Positions 1,991 through 27,661 of a stretch of DNA of 36,753 nucleotides are shown one piece after another. Within the stretch, counting starts at the first letter, position 1; each line of letters opens with the position of its first letter. The position numbers were made by a program, and so were the translations under genes. The notes under the pieces are model-generated. The model was not told the DNA's origin and did no database searches. It saw only the letters and a list, made by a program, of their open reading frames with translations. Source of the stretch: Citrobacter phage Shae_phiSM; the sequence record OR565851; one strand, 5' to 3'.

Positions 1991-2251
1991 TTAATTCTGA
2001 GGTAAAGGCAAACTCATCTGATTGTTTCCCCTGTGTGAAGCTGGCAGCTCATGCCACGGGATACCTTCTGAAGAGTGAACGCCGGAGGCGTGTTTCGATG
2101 TGAATTTATGGAAAGCTTCCAGTGTTGAGAAGCATACGCCGCATTCCAGATTGTTACACTGGTAATACTTTTGCCGCACGGTGTTTGAATCATTTTCCGG
2201 ACGACTGGTGCGGATACGGGCAGATGCGCCACAAAGCGGACAACGGAACAT
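1991..2251 (-). CDS. ogr: Ogr/Delta-family zinc-finger late transcription activator
   Basis: MFRCPLCGASARIRTSR...YYQCNNLEC: CxxC...CxxxxC motif and N-terminal similarity to P2 Ogr; SD AGGGAGG before the ATG at 2251; C-terminus is longer and divergent. Confidence 0.8.
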   Translation of the reverse strand: MFRCPLCGASARIRTSRPENDSNTVRQKYYQCNNLECGVCFSTLEAFHKFTSKHASGVHSSEGIPWHELPASHRGNNQMSLPLPQN

Positions 2252-2293
2252 AGCGACCTCCCTTAACGTGGTGCTGCCGCTATTCTAAGTTGC

Positions 2294-3403
2294 TCACTCT
2301 GTTTCCGCTATCCATTCCGGGATTTTTGCCTCAAGCTCAAGCTGCGTGGTAAAGCCGCTGTTATCAATGGTGTGCTCGGCTTTTGCAATAATCCAGTCCT
2401 GATTATCAATCTCGCTTTTAAATCCTGTTACCGTGCCATGCATTTCGGGGTAGAGTTCTGCGCGTCCACGTGCCAGTGTGATGGAGAATGATGCGGCTCC
2501 GCGTTGTAGCTGCTGCCACTTTGCCGCCGCTGCGCGTCTTGCTGCCTGCTCGTTCTGATAAGTCTTGCGTAACACAAACACATTGCCTTCTGCGCCTTCC
2601 ATATAATCACCTTCACGGCTGCTGCTTTTCTCTTTTTTGGGTTTTGGCGGTTTGCGGCGTTTCACGCTGACTTTTTTCTTTTTCCCGTAATTAAGATCAA
2701 GCCAGTAGGCGCGTACCCCCGTATACGCCTCGCGGTCAGCAATGCGGAACTGATGGCGATCGCTGCTGCTGCGTGTGATGGCGAACGATGGCAACGGCTG
2801 GCCCTGTGCGTTCACGCCACCGCCGGGCATGATGAATAACAGATTACCTCTTTTTACCGTGGTGATTGCACCCAACATTTCCGCCATGCGCGTAAGGAAG
2901 GACATGTCGCTTTCTTCGGTCTGGTCGGCGTGGTCGATTTCGATATCCATCAGCATTTCGCTGATTTGCGGTTTCAGACCATACCGATGAGCGATGGCGG
3001 ATACCACGCGCTCAACGGTCACATCATGCCAGGACACCTCACGTTTAACGTTAAATTCATCCCGAAAATCTGCGCTTCTGGCTGAAACCGTCAGCCTGTC
3101 CGGCGGTCCTTCGTGAGCGATTTCATCAACAATGTAAGTGCCTTTTTCTGTCAGCGGTTCTCCTTTCCAGCCAATGAGAACCGTCAGGCGCGCGCCCCGT
3201 GGCGGTAGCTGCAACTGACCATCTGCATCATCCATCGTGATGGTGAGCTGGTCCGCCTCAAATCCCCGGTTGTCGGTCAGTGACAGGCTCATCAGGCGCT
3301 CTGCCACGCCTGACAGCGTTTTACCCTCCGCGAGAATATCAAAATCCGGCATTTTCACGGGGTCTGTGCCCTGACTGAGCAATTGCATGGTGGTGTCGGT
3401 CAT
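2294..3403 (-). CDS. D: tail protein D (late control gene D family)
   Basis: ORF 2294..3535 trimmed to the ATG at 3403 (MTDTTMQLLSQ...) preceded by SD GGAGGG; gpD-like length and lysine-rich mid region; lies directly upstream of ogr as in P2. Confidence 0.8.
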   Translation of the reverse strand: MTDTTMQLLSQGTDPVKMPDFDILAEGKTLSGVAERLMSLSLTDNRGFEADQLTITMDDADGQLQLPPRGARLTVLIGWKGEPLTEKGTYIVDEIAHEGPPDRLTVSARSADFRDEFNVKREVSWHDVTVERVVSAIAHRYGLKPQISEMLMDIEIDHADQTEESDMSFLTRMAEMLGAITTVKRGNLLFIMPGGGVNAQGQPLPSFAITRSSSDRHQFRIADREAYTGVRAYWLDLNYGKKKKVSVKRRKPPKPKKEKSSSREGDYMEGAEGNVFVLRKTYQNEQAARRAAAAKWQQLQRGAASFSITLARGRAELYPEMHGTVTGFKSEIDNQDWIIAKAEHTIDNSGFTTQLELEAKIPEWIAETE

Positions 3404-3560
3404 CTGTTCCCTCCCTGTGCGGCATGGTCGCATGTGCGTGCGGAGGGGGTTACTGCTTTTTGTTGTCGCCGGGTCGGGAGAACGGCGCAGGGGTGAGATT
3501 ACGCGCGTGGTAGGTGATGATTGTTGCTGAATCATTTAACGGATACAAGGGGCTGAAGCT
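3404..3560. promoter_or_regulatory. divergent intergenic region between D and FI, presumed to hold late promoters
   Basis: 157-bp gap between divergently oriented D and FI starts; I could not identify an Ogr-type TGT-N12-ACA dyad by eye. Confidence 0.3.
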
Positions 3561-4745
3561 ATGAGTGAAACTCGTTTTCATGGTGCCCGTGTTACGGAAA
3601 ATACCGACCTGGTAACAGCGATTAACGATGTTGATTCCAGCGTTATCGGTATCGTGGCAACGGCGGATGATGCGGACGCGGAGCTGTTCCCGCTGAACAA
3701 GCCCACACTGCTGACCCGCGTCAATGACGTGCTGGGAAAATGCGGAACAACGGGGACGCTTTATCGTGCGCTTAAGGCCATCGCAGACCAGGTGAGCACA
3801 AAGGTGATCGTCGTTCGCGTGGCTGAACACAAAGAAGAAGACGGAAAGACGCAGGATCAACTGGTTATCGGTGGTTCTGAGGATGACGGCAGCTATACGG
3901 GGATGTATGCGCTGCTTGTTGCAGAGCAGGATGAAAGCATCGGATACCGTCCGCGTATTCTGGCCGCGCCGGAGCTGGACACGGAGGCGGTAACAAAATC
4001 CCTGTGCGTGATTGCGGGTAAACTGCGCGCGTTTGTGTATGCCACATGTCATGGTTGTAACACGATGGCTGAGGCGATTACCTACCGCCAGAAATTCAAC
4101 GAACGTGAGGTGATGCTCTTATGGCCTGACTTCATCGCCTACAACCCGAAAAGTGGCAAAAACGAAACGTTCCCCGCGCCTGCTTATGCGTGCGGCCTTC
4201 GTGCGTACATTGACCATGAGCAGGGCTGGCACAAATCGCTGTCCAACGTTCCGGTTAAAAATGTGCTGGGAATGTCCAGGCATGTGTTCTGGTCGTTGCA
4301 GGCCGAAGACAGTGATGCCAACAGCCTCAATAACAAAGAAATCACGACCATTATTCGTCGCAACGGGCTCCGCTTCTGGGGCAACCGCACACCGGAAACG
4401 AACGCCTACATCTTTGAGGTGTATACCCGAACCGCACAGGTGCTGGCTGATTCAATTGCGGAAGCGCAGTTTGAAACCATCGACAGTCCACTGACGCCTG
4501 CGAACGTGAAGGATGTTATCAGTGCCATCAGGGCAAAACTGGATTCGCTGGTTACTGCCGGGAAACTGATTGGTGCGGAGTGCTGGTATGACGTGGTGGA
4601 TAACGGCACCACGAATTTACGTCAGGGACGTGTGCGTATTCGCTACAAATATACGCCCGTTCCGCCACTGGAAGACATGGAGCTTTACCAGACGTTTACT
4701 GATGAATTCTTTGGTCCCGCATTTGCGGTGCTGGGAGGTGCCTGA
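3561..4745 (+). CDS. FI: contractile tail sheath protein
   Basis: 394-aa ORF with SD AAGGGG; P2 FI-like sequence and size; stop overlaps the FII start (ATGA). Confidence 0.9.
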   Translation: MSETRFHGARVTENTDLVTAINDVDSSVIGIVATADDADAELFPLNKPTLLTRVNDVLGKCGTTGTLYRALKAIADQVSTKVIVVRVAEHKEEDGKTQDQLVIGGSEDDGSYTGMYALLVAEQDESIGYRPRILAAPELDTEAVTKSLCVIAGKLRAFVYATCHGCNTMAEAITYRQKFNEREVMLLWPDFIAYNPKSGKNETFPAPAYACGLRAYIDHEQGWHKSLSNVPVKNVLGMSRHVFWSLQAEDSDANSLNNKEITTIIRRNGLRFWGNRTPETNAYIFEVYTRTAQVLADSIAEAQFETIDSPLTPANVKDVISAIRAKLDSLVTAGKLIGAECWYDVVDNGTTNLRQGRVRIRYKYTPVPPLEDMELYQTFTDEFFGPAFAVLGGA

Positions 4746-5257
4746 TGGCTGTACCAAAACATCTTCGCTTTTTTACGTTGTTTGTGGATGGTGAAAACGA
4801 AGTGGGTAAAGTGACATCCGTCACGCCGCCCAAACTGACGCGCAAAACCGACAGCTATCGTGGTGGTGGCATGATGGGGGCGGTAAGTATTGATCTCGGT
4901 CTGGACGACTCCGCGCTTGATGCGAGTTTTGTTATGGGGGGAGCTGTTCGTGCGCTGTTCCTTAAATATGGCGGCACGATTGACGGCACGCTGCTGCGTT
5001 TTGCGGGTGAATACTACACCGATGCAGAAAGCGATCTGTATGAAATCGAGATGCGCGGGCGTGTGACGGAAATTGATATGGGGGAAGCCAAACAGGGCGA
5101 AGCCACATCACACACTTACGCTGTCAAAAACACCTACTACAAGCTGAGCGTTAACGATCGCCCGCTGTGGGAAATCGACCTGTTGAACCACATCTACCGG
5201 AAGGACGGCAAGGACATTGTGCCTGACCGTATCCGTTCCGCGCTTGGGCTTGGCTGA
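4745..5257 (+). CDS. FII: tail tube protein
   Basis: 170-aa ORF immediately after the sheath gene; P2 FII-like. Confidence 0.9.
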   Translation: MAVPKHLRFFTLFVDGENEVGKVTSVTPPKLTRKTDSYRGGGMMGAVSIDLGLDDSALDASFVMGGAVRALFLKYGGTIDGTLLRFAGEYYTDAESDLYEIEMRGRVTEIDMGEAKQGEATSHTYAVKNTYYKLSVNDRPLWEIDLLNHIYRKDGKDIVPDRIRSALGLG

Positions 5258-5312
5258 TAAGTAATATGCAGGCGGCGCAGTGCGTCGCCTCTGACTGAAA
5301 AGGAGACAACTG

Positions 5313-5687
5313 ATGAAAGACATCGATACTGAAACCCGGAATAACACCGTGGCGGATGATGTGACGGCAGGTGAGGATATGGCTGTCGAACGTGGCGTAA
5401 AACTGACCCGACCAATTGAGCGTGGTGGCGAAAAAATCACGTATGTGGAGATCACCGGGGCTATTGAGCAGGCTGGATCCCTGCGTGGTCTGTCGCTGTC
5501 TGATGTGCTGAATCTGAAAGCGGATACCATGTTCACGCTGTTGCCTCGCGTGACCTCGCCACGACTGGATGAAGTGATGATTAAAAAAATGTCGTCACGC
5601 GATTTTATTCAGTTGTGCGCTGTGGCTGTAAATTTTATGAGCGAGCCAGACTCTGGCGCGAAGAGCGTGCAGGAGACGGCAGCGTAA
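5313..5687 (+). CDS. E: tail assembly chaperone E
   Basis: 124-aa ORF with SD AAGGAGA, located between tube and tape-measure genes. Confidence 0.85.
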   Translation: MKDIDTETRNNTVADDVTAGEDMAVERGVKLTRPIERGGEKITYVEITGAIEQAGSLRGLSLSDVLNLKADTMFTLLPRVTSPRLDEVMIKKMSSRDFIQLCAVAVNFMSEPDSGAKSVQETAA

Positions 5688-5851
5688 TCACCCTGGTGTG
5701 CTTTGAGCACATCGAAGATCTGGTGGCGGATATTGCCGCTATTTTTAACTGGTCGCCCGCCGAAATCTTCATGATGACGCCCGGCGAAGTGGTTAGCTGG
5801 CGCGAGCGGGCGGCACTTCGCAGCGGGAATGCAGATAATGAAGACTCTTGA
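5582..5851 (+). CDS. E': E' extension made by programmed -1 frameshift (E+E' fusion)
   Basis: -1 frame is open from 5585 (stop at 5582-5584 just upstream) to 5851 and overlaps the start of T; the A7 run at 5583-5589 (tt-aaaaaaa-tg) lies in the E frame at the overlap; same layout as E/E' in P2 and G/GT in lambda. Confidence 0.6.
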
Positions 5852-8645
5852 TATCCGGGTCGCTTTCAGCGCCGTTGACAGGCTGACCCGGCCTGCCGAA
5901 AACGCCCGCCGCCTGATGGGGCAGTTTGGTGACTCCATCCAGCGAACTCAGGGGGCGATCAAAAATCTCGAGCGTCAGGCGCGTTCATTTGAGCGCGCCC
6001 GTGACGCTGTCAGTAAAGCGGATGCTGGCATATTGAAAGCACGACGCCAGCTTAACGCCCTTAATCAGTTACAACGCACGGGTACAGTGCTCAGCGAAAA
6101 ACAACAAAAGCTGATGCAGCAGTTAAGCACCCGGCTTGAACGCCTGAATGAATCGCGCACACGGGAAATTCAGAAAATGCGGGAACTTGGCGGAGAGCTG
6201 AAACGCCACGGCATTTCCCTGACAGGCAGCGATAACACCATCCAGCAGGCCATCAGACGCACCGAACAGTATAACAACCAGCTTGAACGCGAACGGCAGG
6301 CGCTTGCGCGTGTAACGCGGGCGCGTGAGCGGTATTCGCGCGCGCAGGAAACAGCGGGAAAACTGAAAACAGGTGGTGCGCTGGCAATTGGTGCGGCAGC
6401 GGCGGGCGGCTATGCTGCCGGGCGTTTTTTGCAGCCTGCGATCGGGTTCGGCAAAGAGATGTCCCGCGTTCAGGCACTGACGCGAATCGACCAGAACAGC
6501 CCGCAGTTTAAGGCGATGCGTGAGCAGGCGTTAAAACTTGGCTCTGAAACGCAGTTCACCGCAGGCGATGCCGCCAGTGGACAGGCATTTCTTGCAATGG
6601 CTGGCTTCACTCCGCAGGCCATTCAGGCTGCGCTTCCCGGCGTGCTGAGCATGGCAACGGCTGGCGGTATGGATCTCGGCGAGACGGCAGATATTGGCTC
6701 AAATATCCTGACGCAGTTCGGCCTTTCTGCTGACCAGATGGACCGGGTCGGTGACACACTCACCGCAGCGTTTACCCGTACCAACACTGACCTTCGCGCA
6801 CTGGGCGAAACCATGAAATATGCAGGTCCGGTGGCGGGCAAGCTGGGAATATCGCTGGAGCAGGCCGCAGCGATGGCGGGCGTGCTGGCGAATATGGGTA
6901 TCAGGGGAAGTGATGCCGGGACGGCAATGCGTGCCAGCCTGGCTCGTCTGGCATCACCGCCAAAGGCGGCAGCAGAGGCGCTGAAAGAGCTGGGCGTGTC
7001 TGTCTCGGATGCCGGGGGCAAAATGCGCCCGATGGAGGATGTGCTGGCCGACCTTTATAAAGCCACCCGCAAATACGGGGAAGTTGACCGGGTATCGTTC
7101 TTTAAGGACATTGCCGGAGAAGAGGCTTTCACATCGTTTATGGCGCTCGTTGATGCAGCGGGTGACGGTTCCTTACCCAAACTGAGAAAAGAACTTGAAG
7201 GCGCGCGCGGTGAGGCTGAACGCACAGCAAAGGTTATGGCCAACAACCTTGACGGCGATCTGAAATCACTCGGCAGTGCATGGGAAGGGGTGCGCATCCG
7301 CATTGCAGATCTGATTGACGGTCCGCTGCGTTCTGTCACGCAGTGGCTCACGCGGGTGGTATCAAGGGTGACGGCGCTGGCGCAGGCCCATCCGGCACTG
7401 ACGCGCCAGCTACTGATAGCAGGCGGTGCGTTGCTGGCAATGACTGCAACGGTTGGCTCGTTGTCGCTGGCTATTGGTGTGCTTGCTGGTCCGCTGGCAA
7501 AACTGCGTCTTGGTTTTTCTCTCCTGACCGGATCAATGAATGCTGTCATGGTCCTGCCAGCGCTGTGGGGAATGGTGACGGGTTCCGTTTCTTTACTGGG
7601 AGGCGCTATCGGGGCGCTGTTCAGTCCGGTTGGTCTTATCGTGGCTGCGCTTGCCGGAGCTGCCGTTCTTATCTGGAAATACTGGGATCCCATCAGGGCA
7701 TTTTTTGCCGGGGTGTTCAGCGGGATTATGGAAAGGCTGACCCCGCTGCGCGAAACCTTTGAACGGTTTGGTCCTGTTTTTGACGCAGTCGGAAGCGGGA
7801 TCAGCCAGGTGTTTAACTGGTTTAAATCGCTGCTGTCACCGATGGAGTCCAGCAAGGAAACGCTGGATAAATGTACCAGTGCTGGCGAGATATTCGGTAA
7901 CGTTCTTGGCGGTGCGTTACAGCTTGTTCTGACACCTGCAAAAATGCTACTGGATACGCTGGCGTGGATACTTGAAAAACTTGGCGTCCTTCCGGATGAA
8001 GCGGAAAAGGCGCGCAAGAAAATCGAAGACGCACAGCGTGCGGCCATTCTTCAGGACAAGGTTGCCTTGCTTCAGGGGGACCTGGCGAAAATCAATCCGC
8101 CGAAGCCTGTGGAAAATGGCAATGGCACCGGAGGTGATAAACCCAAAGACAACAAACCGCTCACAGACAGCAATACCGGGACGCTACGCAGACTCAGCAA
8201 AATTGCTGATAACACAGGTAAGCTGGTTGATGAGACGAAAAAACGCATTGGCCCCGGCGATATTGTCTTTAAGAACCTGCCCCGCGCACTGGCTGTTCGT
8301 GGGGAGTGGCAGGAGCGGAAGATTGCGCAGGTCAGTAAGCCTGCCCCCGCAATTAATATCACACCCGTGGTCCCGGCTCCGCTGCCTCCGGCGCTGGTCC
8401 CTGTTGTTGCGGCCAGCTCCCGCCCGGTGGCGGAGGCCATACGATCGCCAGTGGCATCAGTTCCTGCAGCTTCCCGTAATCGGGAGCCGGTTGCCTCCGG
8501 ATTTGGCGGTGAAATTCATGTTCATCTGCATAACGTTGTTACGCAGAATCCCCGCGAACTTGCGAAACTGGTCGGTGAAATGGTCAGGGCAGAAATGGAA
8601 CGGCGCGCCCGTGCCGGGCGTGGCAGTTTTTACGATAAAGATTGA
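5829..8645 (+). CDS. T: tail tape measure protein
   Basis: 938-aa ORF, coiled-coil-rich N-terminus, Ala/Gly-rich hydrophobic middle; position after E/E'. Confidence 0.9.
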   Translation: MQIMKTLDIRVAFSAVDRLTRPAENARRLMGQFGDSIQRTQGAIKNLERQARSFERARDAVSKADAGILKARRQLNALNQLQRTGTVLSEKQQKLMQQLSTRLERLNESRTREIQKMRELGGELKRHGISLTGSDNTIQQAIRRTEQYNNQLERERQALARVTRARERYSRAQETAGKLKTGGALAIGAAAAGGYAAGRFLQPAIGFGKEMSRVQALTRIDQNSPQFKAMREQALKLGSETQFTAGDAASGQAFLAMAGFTPQAIQAALPGVLSMATAGGMDLGETADIGSNILTQFGLSADQMDRVGDTLTAAFTRTNTDLRALGETMKYAGPVAGKLGISLEQAAAMAGVLANMGIRGSDAGTAMRASLARLASPPKAAAEALKELGVSVSDAGGKMRPMEDVLADLYKATRKYGEVDRVSFFKDIAGEEAFTSFMALVDAAGDGSLPKLRKELEGARGEAERTAKVMANNLDGDLKSLGSAWEGVRIRIADLIDGPLRSVTQWLTRVVSRVTALAQAHPALTRQLLIAGGALLAMTATVGSLSLAIGVLAGPLAKLRLGFSLLTGSMNAVMVLPALWGMVTGSVSLLGGAIGALFSPVGLIVAALAGAAVLIWKYWDPIRAFFAGVFSGIMERLTPLRETFERFGPVFDAVGSGISQVFNWFKSLLSPMESSKETLDKCTSAGEIFGNVLGGALQLVLTPAKMLLDTLAWILEKLGVLPDEAEKARKKIEDAQRAAILQDKVALLQGDLAKINPPKPVENGNGTGGDKPKDNKPLTDSNTGTLRRLSKIADNTGKLVDETKKRIGPGDIVFKNLPRALAVRGEWQERKIAQVSKPAPAINITPVVPAPLPPALVPVVAASSRPVAEAIRSPVASVPAASRNREPVASGFGGEIHVHLHNVVTQNPRELAKLVGEMVRAEMERRARAGRGSFYDKD

Positions 8646-8657
8646 GGAGTCATGGCC

Positions 8658-9146
8658 ATGATGATGATCTACGGCATGTTTGTTTTTGAGCTGCGCACGC
8701 TGCCGCATCAGCAGTTACAGCAAAACAAAAGCTGGCGGCATGTGAAAAATGAACGCGTTAACCGTTCAGCAAGCTGGCAGTATATCGGTGCAGGAGATGA
8801 TCGCATCGTTCTTTCTGGTGTGCTTTATCCTGAAATTACAGGTGGCGAAGTATCGCTGTCGCTGCTGACCACGCAGGCGTATACAGGACGACCCTGGCCT
8901 CTGATTGATGGCGTCGGGCAGATTTACGGCATGTATGTGCTGACTGAAACGAATACGACCCGTTCCGAGTTTGATCGCTACGGTAAGGCGAAAAAGATAG
9001 AATTTTCACTGACCCTTGAACGCTGTGATGAGGATTTGCGGGAGCGCCTGCAATCCTCATCGTTCAGTGATATGCTATCCGGCTTCAAAGATAAGGTGAC
9101 ATCATCTCTTAACAGCGCGGCCAGTTCAGTTAAAGGGCTGTTCTGA
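8658..9146 (+). CDS. U: tail protein U
   Basis: MMMIYGMFVFELRTLPHQQ...; SD GAGGAG sits 8 nt before the ATG at 8658 (ORF track begins at 8652); P2 gpU-like size. Confidence 0.85.
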   Translation: MMMIYGMFVFELRTLPHQQLQQNKSWRHVKNERVNRSASWQYIGAGDDRIVLSGVLYPEITGGEVSLSLLTTQAYTGRPWPLIDGVGQIYGMYVLTETNTTRSEFDRYGKAKKIEFSLTLERCDEDLRERLQSSSFSDMLSGFKDKVTSSLNSAASSVKGLF

Positions 9147-9154
9147 TTTAACAC

Positions 9155-9190
9155 AAAAACCGCTAATGGTCAGATTAGCGGTTTTCATTT
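9155..9190. terminator. bidirectional rho-independent terminator between convergent U and invertase genes
   Basis: aaaaaccgctaat-ggtcag-attagcggtttt: 12-bp perfect stem flanked by an A-run and a T-run; the invertase stop codon lies in the stem. Confidence 0.7.
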
Positions 9191-9774
9191 TCCTGAGTCT
9201 GCCCGGTTGTTTCTTCAGTCTGTATATCGCCTACAGGGTGATAACGATAAATCGTCGATGTGCCAATGCCGTAAATTATTGCCAGTTGTTTTCTGTCGTG
9301 CCCGTTTTTGATTAGCCTTGCTATTTGCTCATGCTGTTCTTTTGTCAGCTTCGGTCGACGTCCGCCTGTGCGCCCCCTTGCGCGCGCTGCCGCCAGCCCG
9401 GCCAGTGTACGTTCAACAATTAATTCACGTTCCATTTCAGCCAGGGCACCCATCACGTGGAAGAAAAAACGCCCCATTGGAGAAGATGTGTCTATGCTGT
9501 CGGTCAGACTGCGAAAATTAATCCCTCGCTCCCGTAGTTCCCCGACGAGAGAAATCAGATGTTTCATGCTTCGCCCGAGGCGATCCAGTTTCCAGACAAC
9601 CAGCGTGTCACCTTTTTGAAGGCGCTTTAAAGCGCGTTTTAATCCCGGTCGGTCTGTCTTTGTCCCGCTTAATTTATCTTCAAATATTTGTTCACATCCT
9701 GCACAAACAAGAGCGTTTCGTTGCAGGTCTGTATTCTGGTCATTTGTTGATACCCTTACATAGCCAATCAGCAC
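9175..9774 (-). CDS. serine DNA invertase (Gin/Hin/Cin/Pin family)
   Basis: ORF 9175..9792 trimmed to GTG at 9774 (SD GGGAGA upstream); begins LIGYVRVSTNDQNTDLQRNAL... with the catalytic-Ser motif, a resolvase domain and a C-terminal HTH; adjacent to a gix/hix-like crossover site. Confidence 0.9.
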   Translation of the reverse strand: MLIGYVRVSTNDQNTDLQRNALVCAGCEQIFEDKLSGTKTDRPGLKRALKRLQKGDTLVVWKLDRLGRSMKHLISLVGELRERGINFRSLTDSIDTSSPMGRFFFHVMGALAEMERELIVERTLAGLAAARARGRTGGRRPKLTKEQHEQIARLIKNGHDRKQLAIIYGIGTSTIYRYHPVGDIQTEETTGQTQENENR

Positions 9775-9828
9775 ACTGAATCTCCCGTCCAAAAGCGCAA
9801 ATCATGCCATGCAGGCCAGAAACGGCCA

Positions 9829-9854
9829 TTATTTAAAACCTCGGTTTACGAGAA
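9829..9854. repeat. gix/hix-like crossover site 1 (left end of invertible segment)
   Basis: ttatttaaaacctcggtttacgagaa; inverted copy at 12507-12532; shared core aacctcggtttac; resembles invertase crossover sites as I remember them. Confidence 0.75.
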
Positions 9855-10550
9855 CTCGGCACAAGCGGGGAGAAAATACCGTTACTCAGTACAGCGAATA
9901 CCTGGACTAATCGACAAACATTCAGCGGTGGCCTTTCTGGGGAACTGTCCGGCAATGCCGCTACTGCAACAAAGCTGAAAACAGCACGAAAAATTGCTGG
10001 AGTTGGTTTTGATGGTTCTAGCGATATTTCAATTAGTGCCAAAAATGTCAATGCATTTGCACTCCGACAAACAGGTAATACTGTTAATGGTGATACATCC
10101 GTTGGATGGAATTGGGATAGTGGTGCATATAACGCCCTGATTGGTGGTGCATCTGCATTAATTCTTCACTTTAATATAAATGCTGGTAGCTGTCCTGCCG
10201 TACAATTCCGTGTGAATTATAAAAATGGTGGCATTTCCTACAGGTCAGCTCGTGATGGTTATGGGTTTGAATTAGGTTGGTCAGATTTCTATACCACGAC
10301 ACGAAAACCATCAGCGGGAGATGTTGGTGCATATACGCAGGCAGAATGTAACTCAAGGTTTATTACAGGTATTCGCCTTGGCGGTCTGTCATCTGTTCAG
10401 ACATGGAATGGTCCCGGCTGGTCTGACAGGTCAGGTTATGTCGTTACGGGTTCAGTTAACGGAAACCGTGATGAATTAATTGATACAACTCAGGCAAGGC
10501 CAATTCAGTATTGCATTAATGGAACGTGGTATAACGCGGGGAGTATTTAA
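9837..10550 (+). CDS. silent alternative tail-fibre C-terminal cassette (no start; fuses to H on inversion)
   Basis: Frame open from 9837 (just after a stop) through the crossover core to 10550; encodes NLGLRELGTSGEK...SGGLSGE... and ends INGTWYNAGSI, parallel to the current H C-terminus ...INGTWYNVAQV; core ctc-ggt-tta is in the same frame as in H. Confidence 0.7.
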   Translation, partial: NLGLRELGTSGEKIPLLSTANTWTNRQTFSGGLSGELSGNAATATKLKTARKIAGVGFDGSSDISISAKNVNAFALRQTGNTVNGDTSVGWNWDSGAYNALIGGASALILHFNINAGSCPAVQFRVNYKNGGISYRSARDGYGFELGWSDFYTTTRKPSAGDVGAYTQAECNSRFITGIRLGGLSSVQTWNGPGWSDRSGYVVTGSVNGNRDELIDTTQARPIQYCINGTWYNAGSI

Positions 10551-10552
10551 TT

Positions 10553-11086
10553 ATGATGCACTTAAAAAATATTACTGCTGGCAACCCTAAAACAAAAGAG
10601 CAATACCAGCTAACAAAGCAATTTAACATCAAATGGCTTTATACAGAGGATGGGAAAAACTGGTATGAGGAACAAAAGAACTTTCAGCCTGATACGTTGA
10701 AAATGGTCTATGACCACAACGACGTTATTATTTGTATTGAAAAGGATGTTTCAGCAATTAATCCAGAAGGCGCAAGCGTCGTTGAGGTTCCTGATATTAC
10801 AGCAAATCGCCGGGCTGATATTTCGGGTAAATGGATGTTCAAAGATGGCGTAGTGATAAAGCGAACTTATACCGAGGAGGAACAGAGGCAGCAGGCAGAG
10901 AATGAAAAGCAAAGCCTATTGCAACTTGTCAGGGATAAAACCCAGCTATGGGACTCACAGCTACGGCTGGGTATCATTTCCAACGAGAATAAACAAAAAT
11001 TAACCGAGTGGATGCTCTATGCGCAGAAGGTCGAATCCACAGACACCTCCAGCCTGCCAGTAACGTTTCCAGAACAACCAGAATGA
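10553..11086 (+). CDS. tail fibre assembly protein, alternative (silent orientation)
   Basis: 177 aa, [22 protein letters not shown]..., paralogue of the 11115..11642 gene; directly follows the alternative C-terminal cassette. Confidence 0.85.
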   Translation: MMHLKNITAGNPKTKEQYQLTKQFNIKWLYTEDGKNWYEEQKNFQPDTLKMVYDHNDVIICIEKDVSAINPEGASVVEVPDITANRRADISGKWMFKDGVVIKRTYTEEEQRQQAENEKQSLLQLVRDKTQLWDSQLRLGIISNENKQKLTEWMLYAQKVESTDTSSLPVTFPEQPE

Positions 11087-11114
11087 AACAAGGCCCGCTA
11101 TCGGGCCTTAATTT

Positions 11115-11642
11115 TTACTCAGGCTTTTGTGGCCATTCGGGATTTGCTGTATCCACACGGCTGACCAGAACGCTGTAGCGTTCCCATGACTCCAGTCGTG
11201 TGCGTTCCTCATCCGTCGCCATATTCAGCCTGACAGCGCGTTCCAGTGGCTGAATAACGCTTTCAGCTTCAGAAAGCAACGCGACCTTTTGTGATTCGGC
11301 CTGTTGTTGCTGTTCGTCTGCTGTATAAATCCGCTTAAACACAGTTCCGTCCTTAAACATCCACTTCCCTGAATCATCGGCACGACGATTGGCTGTTATA
11401 TCAGGAACTTCAACGACGCTATAGCCTTCAGGGTTAAGCGTGGAGGCATCTTTGGTGATGGCGACAATAATATTATTCTCGTCATAAAGAATTTTTATTG
11501 TGTCTTCCTGAAAGTTCTTTAATTCCTCGTACCAGTTTTTCCCGTCTTCGGACCATAACCAGATAACATCAAAATTCTTTGTTAGCTGATATTGTTCTTT
11601 TGTTTTTGGATTTCCGGACTTAATATTTTTTAAATGCTGCAT
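11115..11642 (-). CDS. G: tail fibre assembly protein (currently expressed orientation)
   Basis: 175 aa, [22 protein letters not shown]...; directly downstream of H. Confidence 0.85.
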
Positions 11643-11645
11643 AAT

Positions 11646-13664
11646 TTACACCTGTGCGACGTTATACCATGTGCCATTGATGTATTTTTGTATTGGTCTG
11701 AAGATGGCTTCATCATCGCCATCTACTTCACCAATGATTCTTAATCCGGTAATTGCGTGTCCGGCTTTTTCATAACGACCACCACGCGCCATCAATTGAA
11801 CAACACGCGTACCCAGGCGAACATCTTTTACATAGCGTGAATCAAAATTCCCCCAGTTGCTGGGCTGTATCTGACCGTTAACAGAAAATATTACCGAGTT
11901 ATCTGTATTTCGCTGGCTATAGAAATGCCATCCTGCCTCATCGCCTAACTCTGCAACTACTGGACGGGTTGAAGCACCCCATAAATTAAACGTTGCATTC
12001 TTTGTGGAGGTGTTGGAGCTGGATAGCGAGAACTTTTTACTATCACCTGCCTGAATGTTTTTAAAAGCAATAGCAACTCCATTCTGAAAGCGGAATACTC
12101 GCTGACTATTAGCGTAAACATCCAGAATACCATCACCATTCTGTTTGAATCCGGTGTCATTATCACCAAGAACAATAGAGCTACCACCTAACGCATTCGT
12201 CGTACCAACTCCAAGACTGCCATTAATGACGGCATTTACCAGAATATTTAGTGCATCCCATTTCAGCGTCATCAGGTCTTTTGTTGTGGTGCTCTGGCGG
12301 CTTCTCCATTTGAAATATTCATTGCCGTTGTCGCCTGTTTCAAACCACATGTATGAATCAGTGTCACCATCAGCATCATTTTTAAATCCAATCTTCGCCC
12401 AGTCAGTATTTCGAATCCAGGCAAGGATTGAGTCATTTTCAAAAGTAAGCCCACCGGACAAGGTATCGCCATTTTTTTGCACGGCGTTACCAGCCCTGTT
12501 TACCGTTTCCTGTAAACCGAGGTATTCGATAACGGCGGCAACGGTCGATTTCGCAAGAATATCCCGCCCGACTTTTGTCAGAGTTGCCAGGCTGGCGACA
12601 TCATTCCCCGTAAAATACGGAAACCTGTCTGCCGCAGTAGCAAGCCCGGCCAGCGCCGTCAGGGTGGCATCTTTCGGTTGCTTACCCGCAAGCGCGTTAG
12701 TCATGGTGGTCGCAAAATTCGGGTCGTTGCCCAACGCCGCCGCCAGCTCGTTCAGCGTGTTCAGTGCATCAGGTGACGAATCTACAAGGGCGGCAATCGC
12801 AGCCATAACGAAAGCCGTGTTTGCGATTTGGGTATTATTCGTTCCCTGTCGCGCAGTTGGTGTTGTTGGCGTTCCGGTCAGCGCAGGACTGTTTAAGGGC
12901 GCTTTCTTGTTCGTTTCATCCATTACCGCCTTAACCGCTTTCGATGTCGCGGCCAGTGTTTCAGACGTGCTGTTGGTGGCACTACTGAGCTGGACTATCC
13001 CTTTTTGTGCCGTCGTGGCGTCCTGAGCGGTATATTTTGCGTTAGCAAGGTCATACGCGGCCTTTACTGCTTTCGGCGTTGCAGCCTGCGTTTCAGACAC
13101 GCTGTTAGTGGCGCTACTGAGTTGAACAAAGCCTTTTGCGGTCAGCGAGGCGTCCGGGTGACGTCGTGACTGTTCATGCTCTTTCAGTTTGTCATCCACG
13201 TAATCCACTGTGGCCATCACCATGGTGTTATCCACGGTAAGCGCCACGGTGGCTGTGCTGGATACGGTCAGAATGGTGCGAAATGTTTGTGCACGTCCGG
13301 ACCCTTCGGCAACGGTTGGCTTGTAACTTTCGGCAGTATTGCCCACCGCGATTAAATCGCCGTGCTCATCAAACACACCAATTTCCCGGATCCAGAATCC
13401 GCCCGTTTCAGGAGGAATAACCAGCTCCGCAATAATGCGGTTCTGATGTGTTGCGTCCAGGATGACGCGATTAACAGTATGTCGCCACACCTCATGCACC
13501 AGACGGGTCTGCTTACTGTCTGGTGTGGGCAACGTGCCGCCACCGTCGCCCACGGCCATATGAGTCAGGCGGACAGGCTTACCATCTGGCGCGGCTGCCT
13601 GCGCTAATTTTTTTGCACCCGTATCGGTGATAACGGTTTTAAATTTTCGTGTTGTGGTACTCAT
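11646..13664 (-). CDS. H: tail fibre protein H; constant N-terminus outside and variable C-terminus inside the invertible segment
   Basis: 672-aa ORF; the crossover site at 12507-12532 lies inside the coding region (encodes ...IEYLGLQETV...). Confidence 0.9.
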   Translation of the reverse strand: MSTTTRKFKTVITDTGAKKLAQAAAPDGKPVRLTHMAVGDGGGTLPTPDSKQTRLVHEVWRHTVNRVILDATHQNRIIAELVIPPETGGFWIREIGVFDEHGDLIAVGNTAESYKPTVAEGSGRAQTFRTILTVSSTATVALTVDNTMVMATVDYVDDKLKEHEQSRRHPDASLTAKGFVQLSSATNSVSETQAATPKAVKAAYDLANAKYTAQDATTAQKGIVQLSSATNSTSETLAATSKAVKAVMDETNKKAPLNSPALTGTPTTPTARQGTNNTQIANTAFVMAAIAALVDSSPDALNTLNELAAALGNDPNFATTMTNALAGKQPKDATLTALAGLATAADRFPYFTGNDVASLATLTKVGRDILAKSTVAAVIEYLGLQETVNRAGNAVQKNGDTLSGGLTFENDSILAWIRNTDWAKIGFKNDADGDTDSYMWFETGDNGNEYFKWRSRQSTTTKDLMTLKWDALNILVNAVINGSLGVGTTNALGGSSIVLGDNDTGFKQNGDGILDVYANSQRVFRFQNGVAIAFKNIQAGDSKKFSLSSSNTSTKNATFNLWGASTRPVVAELGDEAGWHFYSQRNTDNSVIFSVNGQIQPSNWGNFDSRYVKDVRLGTRVVQLMARGGRYEKAGHAITGLRIIGEVDGDDEAIFRPIQKYINGTWYNVAQV
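12507..12532. repeat. gix/hix-like crossover site 2 (inside H)
   Basis: ttcctgtaaaccgaggtattcgataa; reverse complement matches site 1 at about 21 of 26 positions, with an identical 13-bp core. Confidence 0.75.
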
Positions 13665-17387: not shown

Positions 17388-17655
17388 CTTTTGCAATATC
17401 GTTACGTAGCTGTTCACGTCTGGCCTCTCCGTCCTGATTGCGTTGCTGATTTTCCGTGCGGAGTTGTGCCAGCACCTGCTGCATATCCTGTACCCCGGCG
17501 CTGATGATATTCAGGGTGTCGACGGTACTTTTCAGGGTGCTGGCCTGCGCTTCGTTTCTGGCGTTCTCCCGGCCCAGCGACCACGACAGACGCACGGATG
17601 CTCCCCATACGGCAATCAGAAGAAAAGCGACGCCCGGAGAAGTCCATAACCTCAT
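17248..17655 (-). CDS. lysB: i-spanin (LysB/Rz-like)
   Basis: 135 aa with N-terminal TM helix then a charged, coiled-coil-like region; directly downstream of the endolysin gene. Confidence 0.7.
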   Translation of the reverse strand: MRLWTSPGVAFLLIAVWGASVRLSWSLGRENARNEAQASTLKSTVDTLNIISAGVQDMQQVLAQLRTENQQRNQDGEARREQLRNDIAKDECAHALPDARFTDRLRRHAERATASAVSPAYTTDADHTGNASPLP

Positions 17656-21296: not shown

Positions 21297-22133
21297 TCAG
21301 AAGTCAGCCAGCTGGTCGGAGGCTGCACCTGTTGTGGTGAACCGGTTCTGCGGATCGCCGTCCTGCGTGCGCAGTTTTTCCTTCAGTGCTGCCAGCTCTG
21401 TGGTCAGTGACGTAATTTTCTGGCTGTCCTGCTGATGGCGGGTTTCCAGCACATTAAAACGGTCGATAATGTCGGCCTGTGACGTTGCGACGCCTTCCAC
21501 CGCTTCCTGAATACGGGAAAAACTGGCGTCATCCGCTTTGCGGCCACGGCCAATAATCCCCATTACGCGGTTAAACCACTGGGTGCCTTCTTCCTGGCGT
21601 TGTTCTGCCATTTCGATGATTTCAGACTCGATGGCTTCGGAAATGAGCGGTGCTTCACCCTGGACACTGTTGAACGTCATCACCGCCTGACGTTGCTGTG
21701 CCGTGAATTTCAGGCGCTCAGTGCCCAGGCTTGCCGGGGTGTCGGTCATCGCCAGCCCGACCAGATAGGCGCGCCCGTTAACGGAGAACTGCGGGTGCAG
21801 TTCGATACTGGAATAGATTTTCTTGCCGTCCGCGACAAGCTGCTTCATGCGCTCGGTCGGTTCGATTTCTGCATACAGCGCAGTACGTCCGGCCAGCGGA
21901 CCTTCCGTAATGTCTTCCGTACTCAGTGCGGTGACATCGCCCATTGCGGAAAATTCGCTTGACGGGCATGGCGAGAGATAGTGCTCAACGTTCACGCGGG
22001 CAGCGTAAACATCCGGGTTGAAGTTCTCGGCGGCTTCACGCAGATGTACCGGGCTGATTTCGCGGCCATCAACAGTTGATCCGGAGACAGCCACGCGAAA
22101 CTTTTTGCGGGATGTCTTTTTTTCATTAGCCAT
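21297..22133 (-). CDS. O: capsid scaffolding protein O
   Basis: ORF trimmed to ATG 22133 (MANEKKTSRKKFR..., SD GAGGGG); gpO-like. Confidence 0.85.
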   Translation of the reverse strand: MANEKKTSRKKFRVAVSGSTVDGREISPVHLREAAENFNPDVYAARVNVEHYLSPCPSSEFSAMGDVTALSTEDITEGPLAGRTALYAEIEPTERMKQLVADGKKIYSSIELHPQFSVNGRAYLVGLAMTDTPASLGTERLKFTAQQRQAVMTFNSVQGEAPLISEAIESEIIEMAEQRQEEGTQWFNRVMGIIGRGRKADDASFSRIQEAVEGVATSQADIIDRFNVLETRHQQDSQKITSLTTELAALKEKLRTQDGDPQNRFTTTGAASDQLADF

Positions 22134-22287
22134 AGTTTTTGCCCCTCTGACTGGTTCTTCAGTCATGATGGCAAAGCGTAACAGGCTGATACAAAGGGCT
22201 TTTGTTGTAAGAAAACGGCCAGAACAGGGGGTTAAGGAGAACGGTTTCGCGCGCGGGTAATCTTCCTGTAATTACTCAGGGGGAGCA
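22134..22287. promoter_or_regulatory. divergent late promoter region between O and P
   Basis: 154-bp gap between divergent capsid and terminase operons, as at P2 P_O/P_P; no motif confirmed by eye. Confidence 0.35.
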
Positions 22288-25776: not shown

Positions 25777-25791
25777 ATGGGTGAAGGAAAG

Positions 25792-26295
25792 ATGACTCTG
25801 GATTCAACAGCGATACAAATCATTAGTAACGTGATAGTCCTGTTTGGCGTCATAGTTGCTATCTGCACGATTATCTATAACATTCGTACAGCCAAAAAAA
25901 CACAGACTGCTAATTTTTTATTTGAAAGTCGCCAGGACAAAGAATACCTGGAATCGCTACATCTTCTCAGACGCATTCATCGTTCAGGAAAATCGTTTCG
26001 TGCTTATGTCTTTCCCTGTGAAGGCGGGGTGATTACGGAAGAAGAGATGACTGAACGTCGCAAATTCCAGTACATTCTTAACTTTTATGAGAGAGTGGCC
26101 GTAAGTATCCGTGAAGGGATTTACGATGAAAGGATGATTAAGCGAACATCCTTTACAACGGTCGTTACGACTTATGATATTGCGGAACCCCTGATTAAAG
26201 CCATCAGAGAGGATACCCAATCAAAAACGGCTTACCAGGAATTTGAGTGGTTGGTGAAGAGATGGAAAGCCAGGCCACTTGAGAAAGATGTGTAG
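25792..26295 (+). CDS. membrane-anchored protein of unknown function (one N-terminal TM helix plus ~130-aa cytoplasmic domain); candidate defence/exclusion cargo
   Basis: ORF 25777..26295 trimmed to the ATG at 25792 (SD AAGGA); TM helix IQIISNVIVLFGVIVAICTIIYNI; about 40% GC; sits where P2 carries old/tin between gene A and the packaging genes. Confidence 0.7.
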   Translation: MTLDSTAIQIISNVIVLFGVIVAICTIIYNIRTAKKTQTANFLFESRQDKEYLESLHLLRRIHRSGKSFRAYVFPCEGGVITEEEMTERRKFQYILNFYERVAVSIREGIYDERMIKRTSFTTVVTTYDIAEPLIKAIREDTQSKTAYQEFEWLVKRWKARPLEKDV

Positions 26296-26385: not shown

Positions 26386-26697
26386 TTATTCGGGAAATAA
26401 CGCCCGGATATTTCCGGCCATCTGACAGGTTATCTGTGCGGTTGGTGCTGGTTGTGATACGGGGCGTTCTGTCCTGGTTTGCGTCAGGGATAACGCTTCA
26501 TCGTCAGCCCATGCAGCCAGTCGGTAAGCCTCTGCCGGATTCATTTTCAGAAGTGCCAGCCCTGCCAGAAAAGCCACGCGTTGGCCACTTTTGCGGGCTT
26601 CTGGTGTAAGGCTGTCCAGCCAGGCGCATGCTTCGCCTTCGTTCTTGACGGCGGCGGGCTTCAGATAGAAACTTATCCGTCTGGTTGGTGTCGTCAT
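26386..26697 (-). CDS. parR: ParR-like centromere-binding adaptor (ribbon-helix-helix)
   Basis: ORF trimmed to ATG 26697 (SD AAGGAG); RRISFYLKPAAVKNEGEACAWLDSLTPEARKSGQRVAFLAGLALL resembles the plasmid R1 ParR N-terminus as I recall it; directly downstream of the parM-like gene. Confidence 0.65.
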   Translation of the reverse strand: MTTPTRRISFYLKPAAVKNEGEACAWLDSLTPEARKSGQRVAFLAGLALLKMNPAEAYRLAAWADDEALSLTQTRTERPVSQPAPTAQITCQMAGNIRALFPE

Positions 26698-26701
26698 TGG
26701 T

Positions 26702-27661
26702 TTACTCCTTGTCCATTGCGTACAGCCCATTAACCAGAGCAAACTGTGGCACCCCGTCCGCGATGAAAGTCGCATTAACTCCGCAGGCTTCGCGGATAGC
26801 GGGTGCCACAATCTCCGCCCCGCCACCGACAACCATCACCCGCCCGTAACCCGAAAAACCCGCCAGCGCGCGGATCACGCGTTGTTTCAGTGTTTCTTCC
26901 TTTTCACGAATAACCGCCATCAGGCTGGCGTAATGCGCGTCATTGTGGATGTGCTGGCGCAACCAGGCTTCATCATGGCGATGTTCGATAATGGTATTGG
27001 CGATGTGGTGACTGGTACGCATACCGTTAGTGGCCATCACCGACAGTACGGCATCGGCCATCAGGGAAACGCCTACGTGTGGATCGCAAAACACCTGGCT
27101 GATACCTGCCAGTTGTCCCTGAACCTTTGCCACATCCAGCGTGGTTCCGCCCAAATCCACAATCAGCAGGGATTCAAACGGACTCATGTCAGCCAGTGCT
27201 TTAAAGCCAGCCGGAATGGATTCAGGCATAACCCGTACATTACGGATAGTGAATGCCTCACCGTTCTGGTACTCCACCGGGCGCATAACGTTCGCTTTTT
27301 TGCGGTTGATGTTGGTCATATCCGGCTGGGCGTTTGTGTCGAAATACTCGCTCAGTGGCAGGGTGACAACAACATCCACCTCCTGTGGCGTGATGCCTGA
27401 TTTGACCAGCGCGTGATGAATGGCAATGACATTCACATCGCTGTACTGGTATTGCGTGTCGGTCGTCTGGACAAAGCGATCGCTGACCGGATCAAAACCA
27501 TAGCGCACGCCATCAAGCATATAGTTCGCGGGCTGCGTGCCACCGAACGGCGCAGACCATTCCGACTTGAAGCTGTTCGGGCTGATGGCGTTGCGGCGTT
27601 CGCCGTTCTCAGTCCATGCCAGCTTGATGTTGGTGGAGCCGTCGTCGATACAAATTTTCAT
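26702..27661 (-). CDS. parM: ParM/StbA-like actin-type segregation ATPase
   Basis: 319 aa; MKICIDDGSTNIKLAW...YSDVNVIAIHHAL...LIVDLGGTTLDV...VMVVGGGAEI matches the ParM actin-fold motifs (R1 ParM begins MLVFIDDGSTNIKLQW from memory); SD AAGGA. Confidence 0.85.
   Translation of the reverse strand: MKICIDDGSTNIKLAWTENGERRNAISPNSFKSEWSAPFGGTQPANYMLDGVRYGFDPVSDRFVQTTDTQYQYSDVNVIAIHHALVKSGITPQEVDVVVTLPLSEYFDTNAQPDMTNINRKKANVMRPVEYQNGEAFTIRNVRVMPESIPAGFKALADMSPFESLLIVDLGGTTLDVAKVQGQLAGISQVFCDPHVGVSLMADAVLSVMATNGMRTSHHIANTIIEHRHDEAWLRQHIHNDAHYASLMAVIREKEETLKQRVIRALAGFSGYGRVMVVGGGAEIVAPAIREACGVNATFIADGVPQFALVNGLYAMDKE

Follow-up and report, generated by a model that had tools for sequence, protein, structure and literature searches.

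The window, that is, the whole 36,753-nucleotide stretch of Citrobacter phage Shae_phiSM (OR565851), is a P88-type prophage (genus Xuanwuvirus, family Peduoviridae) opened at its attachment site. At the nucleotide level, positions 2003-10000 were 98.1% identical to P88_4B11 and positions 2000-9849 were 95.7% identical to P88; the part at 10001-35000 was 96.3% identical to P88 across 86% of that further 25 kb. Both the high genome-wide identity to P88 and the P88 gene order place it in Xuanwuvirus. According to their annotated tables, P88 and P88_4B11 have the order and strands of the window from ogr to H, including a 157-bp gap between D and FI and an invertase gene adjoining U, and differ from it only in cargo genes and in details of the tail fibre. 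A PADLOC scan of the cargo ORFs of the window returned no defence-gene matches.

The minus strand carries ogr, D, the invertase gene, G and H, and the plus strand FI-FII-E/E'-T-U (3561-9146). The ogr homologue (1991-2251, minus strand; 86 aa; Pfam Ogr_Delta, E=5e-14) encodes a late-gene activator with 36% identity to P2 Ogr; comparison of the translations gave a zinc finger of the form CX2CX24CX4C here and CX2CX22CX4C in P2. It adjoins D, the gene for the baseplate hub or "late control D" protein (2294-3403, minus strand; 369 aa; Pfam Phage_GPD), which is 48% identical to D of P2 and 53% to D of Fels-2, and the presence of an Ogr/Delta zinc-finger activator gene next to D is as expected for late control of the P2 type. 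At its longest, the D reading frame reaches 3535. Alignment of the start codon over 16 loci of different genera showed that the start kept across genera is the ATG at 3403, accompanied by a GGAGGG Shine-Dalgarno sequence, and the D-FI gap is therefore 157 bp long (3404-3560).

On the plus strand, the tail sheath gene FI (3561-4745; Pfam sheath domains; 45% identical to P2 FI) and the tail tube gene FII (4745-5257; Phage_tube, E=2e-45) are followed by E (5313-5687; a weak match to TAC_7) and a predicted -1 frame extension, E', open at 5615-5851. The slippery heptamer A_AAT_TTT at 5630-5636 is canonical and in the E frame, suggesting an E/E' -1 frameshift design just upstream of T; a "GpE family" ORF is annotated at this position in relatives. 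The tape measure gene T (start at 5829 or at 5838, the latter as annotated in relatives, to 8645; PhageMin_Tail, E=4e-58) and the tail protein gene U (8652-9146; Phage_P2_GpU, E=5e-39) complete the block. With Pfam matches to all six of FI, FII, E (weak), T, U and D, the window contains a P2-like tail module, the proteins of which, H and G apart, are 33-48% identical to their P2 counterparts. The GC skew tracks the coding strand and moves with the genes, and is therefore uninformative on the age of any inversion.

At its far end, U converges on the gene for a Gin/Hin-type serine invertase (9175-9792, minus strand; Pfam Resolvase and HTH_7), the 5' part of which is 93-97% identical to gin of Mu and D108. 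A predicted bidirectional intrinsic terminator lies at 9156-9185, with a 12-bp stem, AAAACCGCTAAT/ATTAGCGGTTTT, whose folding energy is -15.7 kcal/mol for the plus strand and -17.1 kcal/mol for the minus strand (z about -5 per strand; none of 200 shuffles was equally stable). T-runs trail the hairpin on both strands, as in the sequence of a bidirectional intrinsic terminator, and its 3' arm covers the final 11 nt of the invertase ORF (stop codon at 9175-9177). Beyond the invertase is an invertible tail-fibre segment (9838-12523), delimited by inverted crossover sites GTAAACCGAGGT at 9838-9849 and 12512-12523; the inverted repeats I1-I3 support these boundaries. It contains G (11115-11642, minus strand), an alternative G' (10553-11086) and fibre C-terminal ends, both chaperones matching Caudo_TAP, and the FI-U block lies outside it. 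The fibre gene H (11646-13664, minus strand; Pfam tail-fibre domains) encodes a protein 89% identical to P2 H. The convergence of U on the invertase, described in an earlier note on this DNA, is real in the window but is found in some members of the lineage only: in the many flipped relatives without an invertase, U converges directly on G or on cargo genes. A GC-rich but non-homologous hairpin comes after the stop codon of U in most flipped relatives.

The same note had regarded the FI-U block as inverted relative to P2. Our comparison bears this out, as P2 and Fels-2 have FI...U-D-ogr co-directional with H-G, and the window lacks the single co-directional FI...U-D operon that in P2 follows H-G on the same strand. 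The reported divergence of D and FI across 157 bp (3404-3560) proved exact with the D start at 3403, and D is indeed cut off from the F operon. The suggestion that D must have its own promoter also gained support, since the footprint kept in the gap across genera fits a dedicated D promoter.

The flipped order is not confined to this phage. It was found in 12 phage records, and annotated records of P88, P88_4B11 and E. coli (RefSeq) have the same strand order. A collinear match to at least 80% of the 8-kb region was present in 1108 of 5426 complete E. coli genomes and the D-FI junction (757 bp) was intact in 1358 of the 5426, so that about a quarter of complete E. coli genomes carry flipped-order prophages. 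Species-representative genomes were surveyed as well, with the best 80 of 477 loci kept, a sample in which reversions or independent inversions in other branches of the family, if rare, would go unseen. Within these best 80, all 59 loci with D 60-98% identical to that of the window were flipped (about 27 enterobacterial genera), and none of the 21 with D 48-53% identical was; 15 of the latter were fully co-directional from FI to D, four had U and D co-directional and two had other neighbours. Xenorhabdus, Photorhabdus, Providencia, Yersinia and Hafnia are among those sharing the order, with identity down to 60% for D and 53% for FI, and a second ICTV genus, Reipivirus, also shows it. In neighbour-joining trees of D, FI and U rooted on P2, used as a simple test of monophyly, the flipped loci formed one clade with no canonical loci inside, on stem branches of 0.19-0.26. 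The xenorhabdicin tailocin was considered as a further sharer of the layout and rejected, for in its published description the variable region stands between the sheath gene and the fibre gene, as it does canonically (PMC13280938), so the flipped loci of Xenorhabdus belong to other prophages.

The arrangement is thus established, as had been supposed, and it is the norm across its lineage, a result that the earlier note had said would make it unremarkable there. The flipped order, already present in annotated genomes of a named genus, is ordinary and no artefact. P88 itself is an inducible, plaque-forming, viable myovirus with a contractile tail (PMC5285337), and the flipped order is therefore functional.

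The 12 phage records, the E. coli genomes, the 59 loci and the single clade exclude the misassembly or recent inversion that had been held open earlier. An assembly error in this one sequence has nothing in its favour but the formal possibility raised in that note, and we give it practically no credence: both junctions recur in the 12 phage genomes and, collinear over 8 kb, in the 1108 E. coli genomes, the D-FI junction recurs in the 1358 genomes, the 59 loci of other genera among the best 80 of 477 show the same order, and there are no flanking repeats able to mislead an assembler. That the block was turned recently, in this strain or only in E. coli P88-like prophages, is suggested by the contrast with P2 and by nothing more; it is hardly conceivable for an order common to distant relatives (D to 60%, FI to 53% identity), carried by a single clade on a long stem branch, in which the D side of the gap has evolved a conserved promoter-like layout and the ends of the block keep no inverted repeats. 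A search for inverted repeats at the ends of the FI-U block found only short chance pairs in the window, an example being I22 (15 nt, arms at 3301 and 8612). The invertase gene, which abuts the U end of the block, might raise the idea that FI-U is a second switchable segment flipped by this Gin-type enzyme. This we consider exceedingly improbable. The crossover core GTAAACCGAGGT bounds only the fibre segment, occurs nowhere else in the window and has nothing similar to it at 3404-3560 or 9147-9174; a flip back would separate FI from the promoter region only with a site inside the gap, and none is present there. Furthermore, every locus examined showed one orientation, and many flipped relatives possess no invertase.

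The divergent D-FI region (3404-3560) is predicted to act as a bidirectional late promoter. Among 16 aligned relatives of different genera, its length is 145-157 bp and its internal geometry is fixed. In the window, a candidate Ogr-type activator dyad, TGT-N12-AGA, lies at 3464-3481 (centre 3472.5), with a right half-site that is degenerate by one mismatch, AGA for ACA, relative to the consensus TGT-N12-ACA. A strict search of the window for that consensus gave six matches, no more than expected by chance, and none of them in the D-FI gap; the dyad was recognised by comparing this gap with the divergent O-P gap, and then with relatives. The extended pattern TTGTTGT-N12-AGAAC has exactly two matches in the window (0.01 expected by chance), one in each of these gaps. 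The O-P site (22202-22225) has its centre at 22214.5, which is 73.5 nt away from the start codon of P (ATG at 22288) and 81.5 nt away from the probable one of O (ATG at 22133), so the geometry is alike in both gaps. A third Ogr-like site, at 17563-17586 on the minus strand, has two mismatches and lacks the downstream blocks.

Conservation of the dyad was evident in both types of loci. At the same distance from FI, 34 of the 57 flipped loci and 12 of the 15 canonical ones have the exact TGT-N12-ACA, and 52 of 57 and 15 of 15, respectively, have a dyad with at most one mismatch, against a background expectation per locus of 0.004 (exact) and 0.09 (one mismatch). The gap contains one conserved dyad only, and over 16 genera its centre is 67.5-71.5 nt away from the ATG of D and 78.5-88.5 nt away from that of FI. 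On either side, -10-like hexamers occur 43.5-48.5 nt from the centre (52 non-redundant loci). Those on the FI side are conserved nAnnAT hexamers (GATTAT, GAATAT, GATGAT and others, in 52 relatives), and in the window the predicted PF -10 is GATGAT at 3516-3521 (plus strand), with a predicted FI start near 3528. At the D-side offset, the 52 non-redundant relatives have AATCAT-like hexamers, 30 of them with a preceding TG; the window has a predicted extended -10 for PD, TGC GACCAT, at 3424-3432 (minus strand), with a predicted D start near 3417 and a weak hexamer, GACCAT. A scan of the D-FI gap for the sigma-70 consensus found nothing, as expected for activator-dependent promoters. A GC-rich block on the D side of the gap is kept in both subclades. 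As a general late-promoter signature, CGCGCGCG was rejected; it shows no overall enrichment in the window, and therefore only its conserved position counts.

Taken from the sequence, these features suggest that one shared activator site would drive both PF and PD, like the PP/PO pair of P2. We lean, by a modest degree, toward promoter capture: the inversion would have set D beside the existing PF site, giving one Ogr dyad with two mirror-image promoters, a layout that would be a derived character of a deep clade with at least two ICTV genera and about 27 host genera. A possible but less probable reading is that transcription of D comes from a constitutive or early promoter independent of Ogr, leaving the dyad to FI alone. 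The conserved CGCGCGCG together with TGnAATCAT could be a self-sufficient extended -10 or the site of another factor, and the imperfect right half-site of the window points the same way. This reading is opposed by the fixed distance of the D-side hexamer from the dyad centre, a spacing that mirrors the FI side, and by a distance from the D ATG to the centre that varies by only 4 nt over 16 genera. The O-P gap of the window has the same site and geometry, P2 offers a precedent of one site for two divergent late promoters, and D, as a virion protein, is needed late.

In the 42-bp spacer between D and ogr, a -10-like TAGAAT box (2282-2287, minus strand) is a candidate for ogr's own promoter. It is retained as TAAAAT in one relative (L085), where cargo genes separate D from ogr. 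The D-FI gap was also considered as a cargo hotspot and rejected; insertions in relatives sit in the D-ogr spacer instead.

Based on these results, FI-U and PF were very probably inverted in place once, in the clade ancestor of these enterobacterial P2-like phages, and the order became fixed as the normal one. The FI-FII-E/E'-T-U block would have turned together with its PF late promoter and become an operon of its own, presumably ending at a hairpin common to the convergent fibre/invertase transcript. D, having lost its place at the end of the F operon, now stands back to back with FI and may be transcribed from a new late promoter, PD, through the other face of the Ogr-binding dyad of PF; the predicted PF and PD starts are each about 55 nt away from the centre of the dyad, like those of PP/PO in P2. 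Downstream of D, ogr has probably retained a promoter of its own, and read-through from PD may reach it too. The insertion of a foreign sheath-to-U module backwards, replacing the original, is an improbable alternative, although the genomes of P2-like phages are mosaic: in the window, H and G share about 90% identity with P2, against about 45% for the other proteins, the invertase is in part about 95% identical to gin of Mu, and in E. coli relatives a mosaic boundary lies just after U. D, FI, FII, U, N, P and Q are each 42-48% identical to their P2 counterparts, and inversion in place therefore fits better than the import of a foreign module; D, FI, FII, U and the head genes are equally distant from P2 and Fels-2. 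Moreover, one and the same flipped clade comes out of the trees of D, FI and U, and the distance from the PF site to FI is that of canonical phages. In formal terms, an ancient replacement by a related module, set in backwards, would look the same as an inversion in place.

As a discovery, the order matters little: deposited genomes of a named genus already have it, as do about a quarter of the complete genomes of E. coli. An explicit description of the FI-U inversion or its layout was not found in the literature searched, and the text of the P88 paper (PMC5285337) does not mention inversion, sheath, synteny or gene order. For prophage typing, the divergent D/FI junction offers a clean synteny marker by which the P88/Reipivirus clade can be told from P2-like phages of the canonical order, and the locus offers a natural example of a late operon split and, as predicted here, re-wired through an existing activator site. 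For annotators, the layout should not be flagged as an assembly error, and D should be annotated from the conserved ATG (3403) instead of from the start of the longest ORF (3535).

Among named phages, Klebsiella phage ST16-OXA48phi5.4 (Reipivirus) has the same plan, with U-T-E-FII-FI on one strand and D and an Ogr-like gene divergent on the other; its D is 70% identical to that of the window. Unlike the window, it has no invertase, and cargo (DUF262 and a hypothetical protein) occupies the convergent fibre/U junction. Salmonella phage Fels-2 (Felsduovirus) is P2-like with a fibre invertase between G and the sheath gene, but one strand carries its invertase gene together with FI...U, D and ogr; this layout likely shows the arrangement before the inversion.

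In P2, the F operon runs from PF through FI FII E E' T U D, seven genes co-directional with H-G, and is followed by ogr. P2 D overlaps the end of U, whereas in the window FI-U is reversed and D stands alone; the E/E' -1 frameshift design, predicted in the window, is common to both. In P2 as in the window, the FI ATG is preceded at about 83-89 nt by an Ogr-type site; the centre of the P2 PF site is 83 nt from that ATG. The consensus TGT-N12-ACA and the four P2 late operons have been described (PMC3931495). Stenotrophomonas phage Smp131 has rearranged tail operons in which the TGT-N12-ACA late promoters are kept, and one of its dyads is read both ways for PP'/PO' (PMC3931495); its rearrangement is an exchange of membership between the V and F operons, not an inversion of FI-U. 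The closest parallel to the predicted D/FI promoter pair comes from the P2 record, where one activator site (3057-3087) serves the divergent PP and PO, with starts 55-56 nt from its centre. Those starts are mapped and drive P and O, whereas the D and FI starts of the window are predicted only; the predicted -10 hexamers of the window are symmetric about the dyad at the corresponding offset.

The gene calls of the earlier note were upheld in the window by an ORF map and Pfam scans. The genes ogr (1991–2251), D (2294–3403), the Gin/Hin-type invertase (9175–9792), G (11115–11642) and H (11646–13664) lie on the minus strand, and FI (3561–4745), FII (4745–5257), E (5313–5687), T (5829/5838–8645) and U (8652–9146) on the plus strand. 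The frame of the E′ extension is open over 5615–5851, with a canonical −1 slippery heptamer (A_AAT_TTT) at 5630–5636. The longest ORF of D extends to 3535; however, the ATG at 3403 is preceded by a GGAGGG ribosome-binding site and is aligned with the D start of 15 relatives from other genera, and the alignment indels 5′ of it are not multiples of three. Therefore, D starts at 3403, and the D–FI gap spans 157 bp (3404–3560), as had been proposed. Since FI…U-D-ogr is co-directional with H-G in P2 and Fels-2, the claim that the block is inverted relative to P2 is fully borne out.

The window represents a member of a known genus, and its layout is already present in public annotated genomes. It has 98.1% identity to Xuanwuvirus P88_4B11 over 2003–10000 and 95.7% to Escherichia phage P88 over 2000–9849; a further 25 kb has 96.3% identity to P88, with 86% of the length covered. 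The annotations of both phages give the same strands and order, including the 157-bp D–FI gap. Because the window extends from just past the attachment point on the integrase side as far as the integrase gene, it is a P88-type prophage, or a phage genome opened at attP. Induction, plaque formation and a contractile tail have been described for P88 (PMC5285337), so the gene order is functional.

The earlier note regarded the arrangement as established, leaving misassembly or a recent inversion possible. The former view is supported and both reservations are refuted: among 5426 complete E. coli genomes, 1108 match the 8-kb region collinearly over at least 80% of its length, and a 757-bp probe over the D–FI junction was intact in 1358 of the 1377 matching genomes. 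No inverted repeats flanking the block were found in the window. The invertase crossover core, GTAAACCGAGGT, occurs in the window only at 9838–9849 and 12512–12523, where it bounds the tail-fibre segment, so the block is not an invertase substrate.

The D proteins from diverse matches were aligned, and the FI, FII, T, U, D, ogr, H, I, J and V of the window were placed by tblastn on the best 80 of 477 loci, in a survey with one genome per bacterial species. Among these 80, the inverted order proved to be the norm of the lineage, the outcome under which the earlier note had said that it would be unremarkable: FI was divergent from D in all 59 loci with D at 60–98% identity. U lay beyond FI on the FI strand, and the other strand carried D, ogr, H, I, J and V. 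These flipped loci come from about 27 named genera, including Salmonella, Citrobacter, Enterobacter, Klebsiella, Kosakonia, Serratia, Pectobacterium, Brenneria, Erwinia, Pantoea, Edwardsiella, Xenorhabdus, Photorhabdus, Providencia, Morganella, Hafnia and Yersinia. None of the other 21 loci among the best 80, with D at 48–53%, was flipped; 15 had the full co-directional FI-to-D order, four had U-D co-directional with FI absent or partly beyond the fetched sequence, and two had other neighbours. In two Yersinia loci with canonical-type D (L080, Yersinia sp. HM-2024; L083, Y. nurmii), baseplate genes V, J and I lie directly upstream of U-D or D, and no sheath or tube genes were found within 10 kb; these represent a different rearrangement or a degraded element. 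A Firmicute-labelled contig (NZ_JBQPOM010000071.1, "Vagococcus sp. WN89Y") carries a prophage with D, FI and U 95–98% identical to the E. coli type; contamination or mislabelling of the assembly is the probable cause. The phage collection also has 47 records with D at ≥60% identity, among them Klebsiella phage ST16-OXA48phi5.4 (Reipivirus), whose annotation shows the flipped order as in the window.

Neighbour-joining trees of D, FI and U, with P2 as the root, grouped the flipped loci into one clade that contained no canonical locus, on stem branches of 0.19–0.26 substitutions per site. The D, FI, FII, U, N, P and Q proteins of the window all have 42–48% identity to their P2 counterparts; by this measure the block is not more foreign than the genes around it. 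The simplest reading of the distribution, trees and identities is that the block was inverted in place once, long ago.

Between U and the invertase lies a hairpin with a 12-bp stem (9156–9185), flanked by an A-run 5′ and a T-run 3′. Its folding energy is −15.7 kcal/mol on one strand and −17.1 kcal/mol on the other (z about −5 for both), and its 3′ arm overlaps the invertase stop codon. A GC-rich hairpin soon after the U stop is present in most flipped relatives, followed by G, H or an invertase gene in convergent orientation. The sequences of these hairpins are not homologous to one another, a pattern that would fit selection for a terminator at the junction. In E. coli relatives, homology often stops 5–6 nt past the U stop (about 9152 in the window), and Klebsiella phage ST16-OXA48phi5.4 has cargo genes (DUF262 and a hypothetical protein) at its convergent tail-fibre/U junction (778–2681 of its locus, L088), whereas the window has the invertase in that place. 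These cargo genes and homology breaks indicate that the fibre/U junction is a mosaic boundary. Over about 9419–9850, which comprises the 5′ portion of the invertase gene and the fibre fragment next to it, identity to the gin/S′ region of Mu, D108 and SfMu is 93–97%, an identity not shared by the 3′ part of the gene; this looks like a recent exchange with Mu-like phages. H and G (11115–13664) have 89–91% protein identity to those of P2, and the other virion proteins 25–61%. Judging from sequence, the tail fibre was gained through horizontal exchange.

The motif TTGTTGT-N12-AGAAC has exactly two matches in the window (0.01 expected by chance), in the D–FI gap and in the divergent O–P gap, and can be read as the P2-type activator site TGT-N12-ACA, for which consensus and operons have been described (PMC3931495), with one mismatch. 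Of 57 non-redundant flipped loci, 34 have an exact TGT-N12-ACA 74–95 nt ahead of the FI start codon (52 with one mismatch allowed); upstream of FI in canonical loci, the counts are 12 of 15 exact and 15 of 15 with one mismatch. The background expectation per locus is 0.004 exact and 0.09 one-mismatch sites. In P2, too, 83 nt separate the centre of the PF site from the FI start codon. Retention of the dyad at a like distance from FI in both types of loci suggests that PF, the predicted late promoter of FI, travelled with its gene.

The D–FI gap measures 145–157 bp in 16 aligned genera, where the centre of its single dyad is 67.5–71.5 nt from the D ATG and 78.5–88.5 nt from the FI ATG. Ungapped anchoring of 52 non-redundant loci on the dyad revealed a −10-like hexamer on both sides, 43.5–48.5 nt from its centre (GATTAT, GAATAT and GATGAT on the FI side; AATCAT, AACTAT and GACCAT on the D side, where TG comes before the hexamer in 30 of the 52). 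At this spacing, each predicted start is about 55 nt away from the centre. A GC-rich block on the D side is conserved in both subclades. In the window, predicted PF (GATGAT) is located at 3516–3521, with a predicted start near 3528, and the predicted D promoter, PD (TGC-GACCAT), at 3424–3432 on the minus strand, with a predicted start near 3417. From the footprinting of the dyad and mirrored hexamers, we infer that one Ogr dyad serves divergent PF and PD. The conserved dyad and D-side hexamer thus support the earlier proposal that D needs its own promoter.

In the start region of scaffold gene O (22131–22166), the longest ORF starts at 22166, but the ATG at 22133 (MANEKK…, aligning with P2 MAKKVSKF…) is probably the true start; this would make the O–P gap 154 bp, nearly equal to the D–FI gap. 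On the minus strand at 17563–17586, inside an ORF of the lysis-gene region, there is a third Ogr-like site (TCGTGGTCGCTGGGCCGGGAGAAC), which has two mismatches; its spacer closely resembles that of the D–FI site, and it may be the counterpart of the P2 PV promoter.

D and ogr are only 42 bp apart with no hairpin between them, so read-through from predicted PD is possible. About 30 nt ahead of the ogr start codon lies a TAGAAT box (2282–2287), which persists as TAAAAT in an E. coli relative (L085) where cargo genes part ogr from D; this suggests that ogr has its own promoter, like P2 ogr. The D–ogr spacer (2252–2293), free of cargo in the window, is an insertion hotspot in E. coli relatives (L085, 753–2245; L086, 753–4566; L087, 753–4270), holding a DUF3800 gene, an hxsDBCA His-Xaa-Ser system with IS66, or a GapS6a gene with a 2.8-kb ORF. 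The DUF3800, Hxs and GapS6a genes run in the opposite direction to D and ogr.

Elsewhere in the window, an AT-rich cargo segment beside the attachment end (165–1440; 35–37% GC) has two genes, one for a 297-aa protein in which a type VI secretion VasI domain was recognised (E = 5e-25) and one for a zinc-ribbon protein of 125 aa; PADLOC gave no match for either. ParM/StbA actin-like segregation and Plasmid_stab_B (ParR-like) proteins are encoded at 26386–27661, in an integrating P2-like prophage, near a DUF4760 gene (25777–26295).

Overall, the inverted order is real but ordinary. A literature search found no paper giving an account of the inversion or its promoter consequences; what is mildly new is limited to the PF/PD promoter with its inferred shared dyad and to the D–FI junction as a clade marker. 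Smp131, another P2-like phage, has rearranged tail operons with TGT-N12-ACA sites retained (PMC3931495). The P2 record itself lists one site (3057–3087) for the divergent PP and PO, with starts at 3016 and 3127, the same design as that predicted here for PF and PD.
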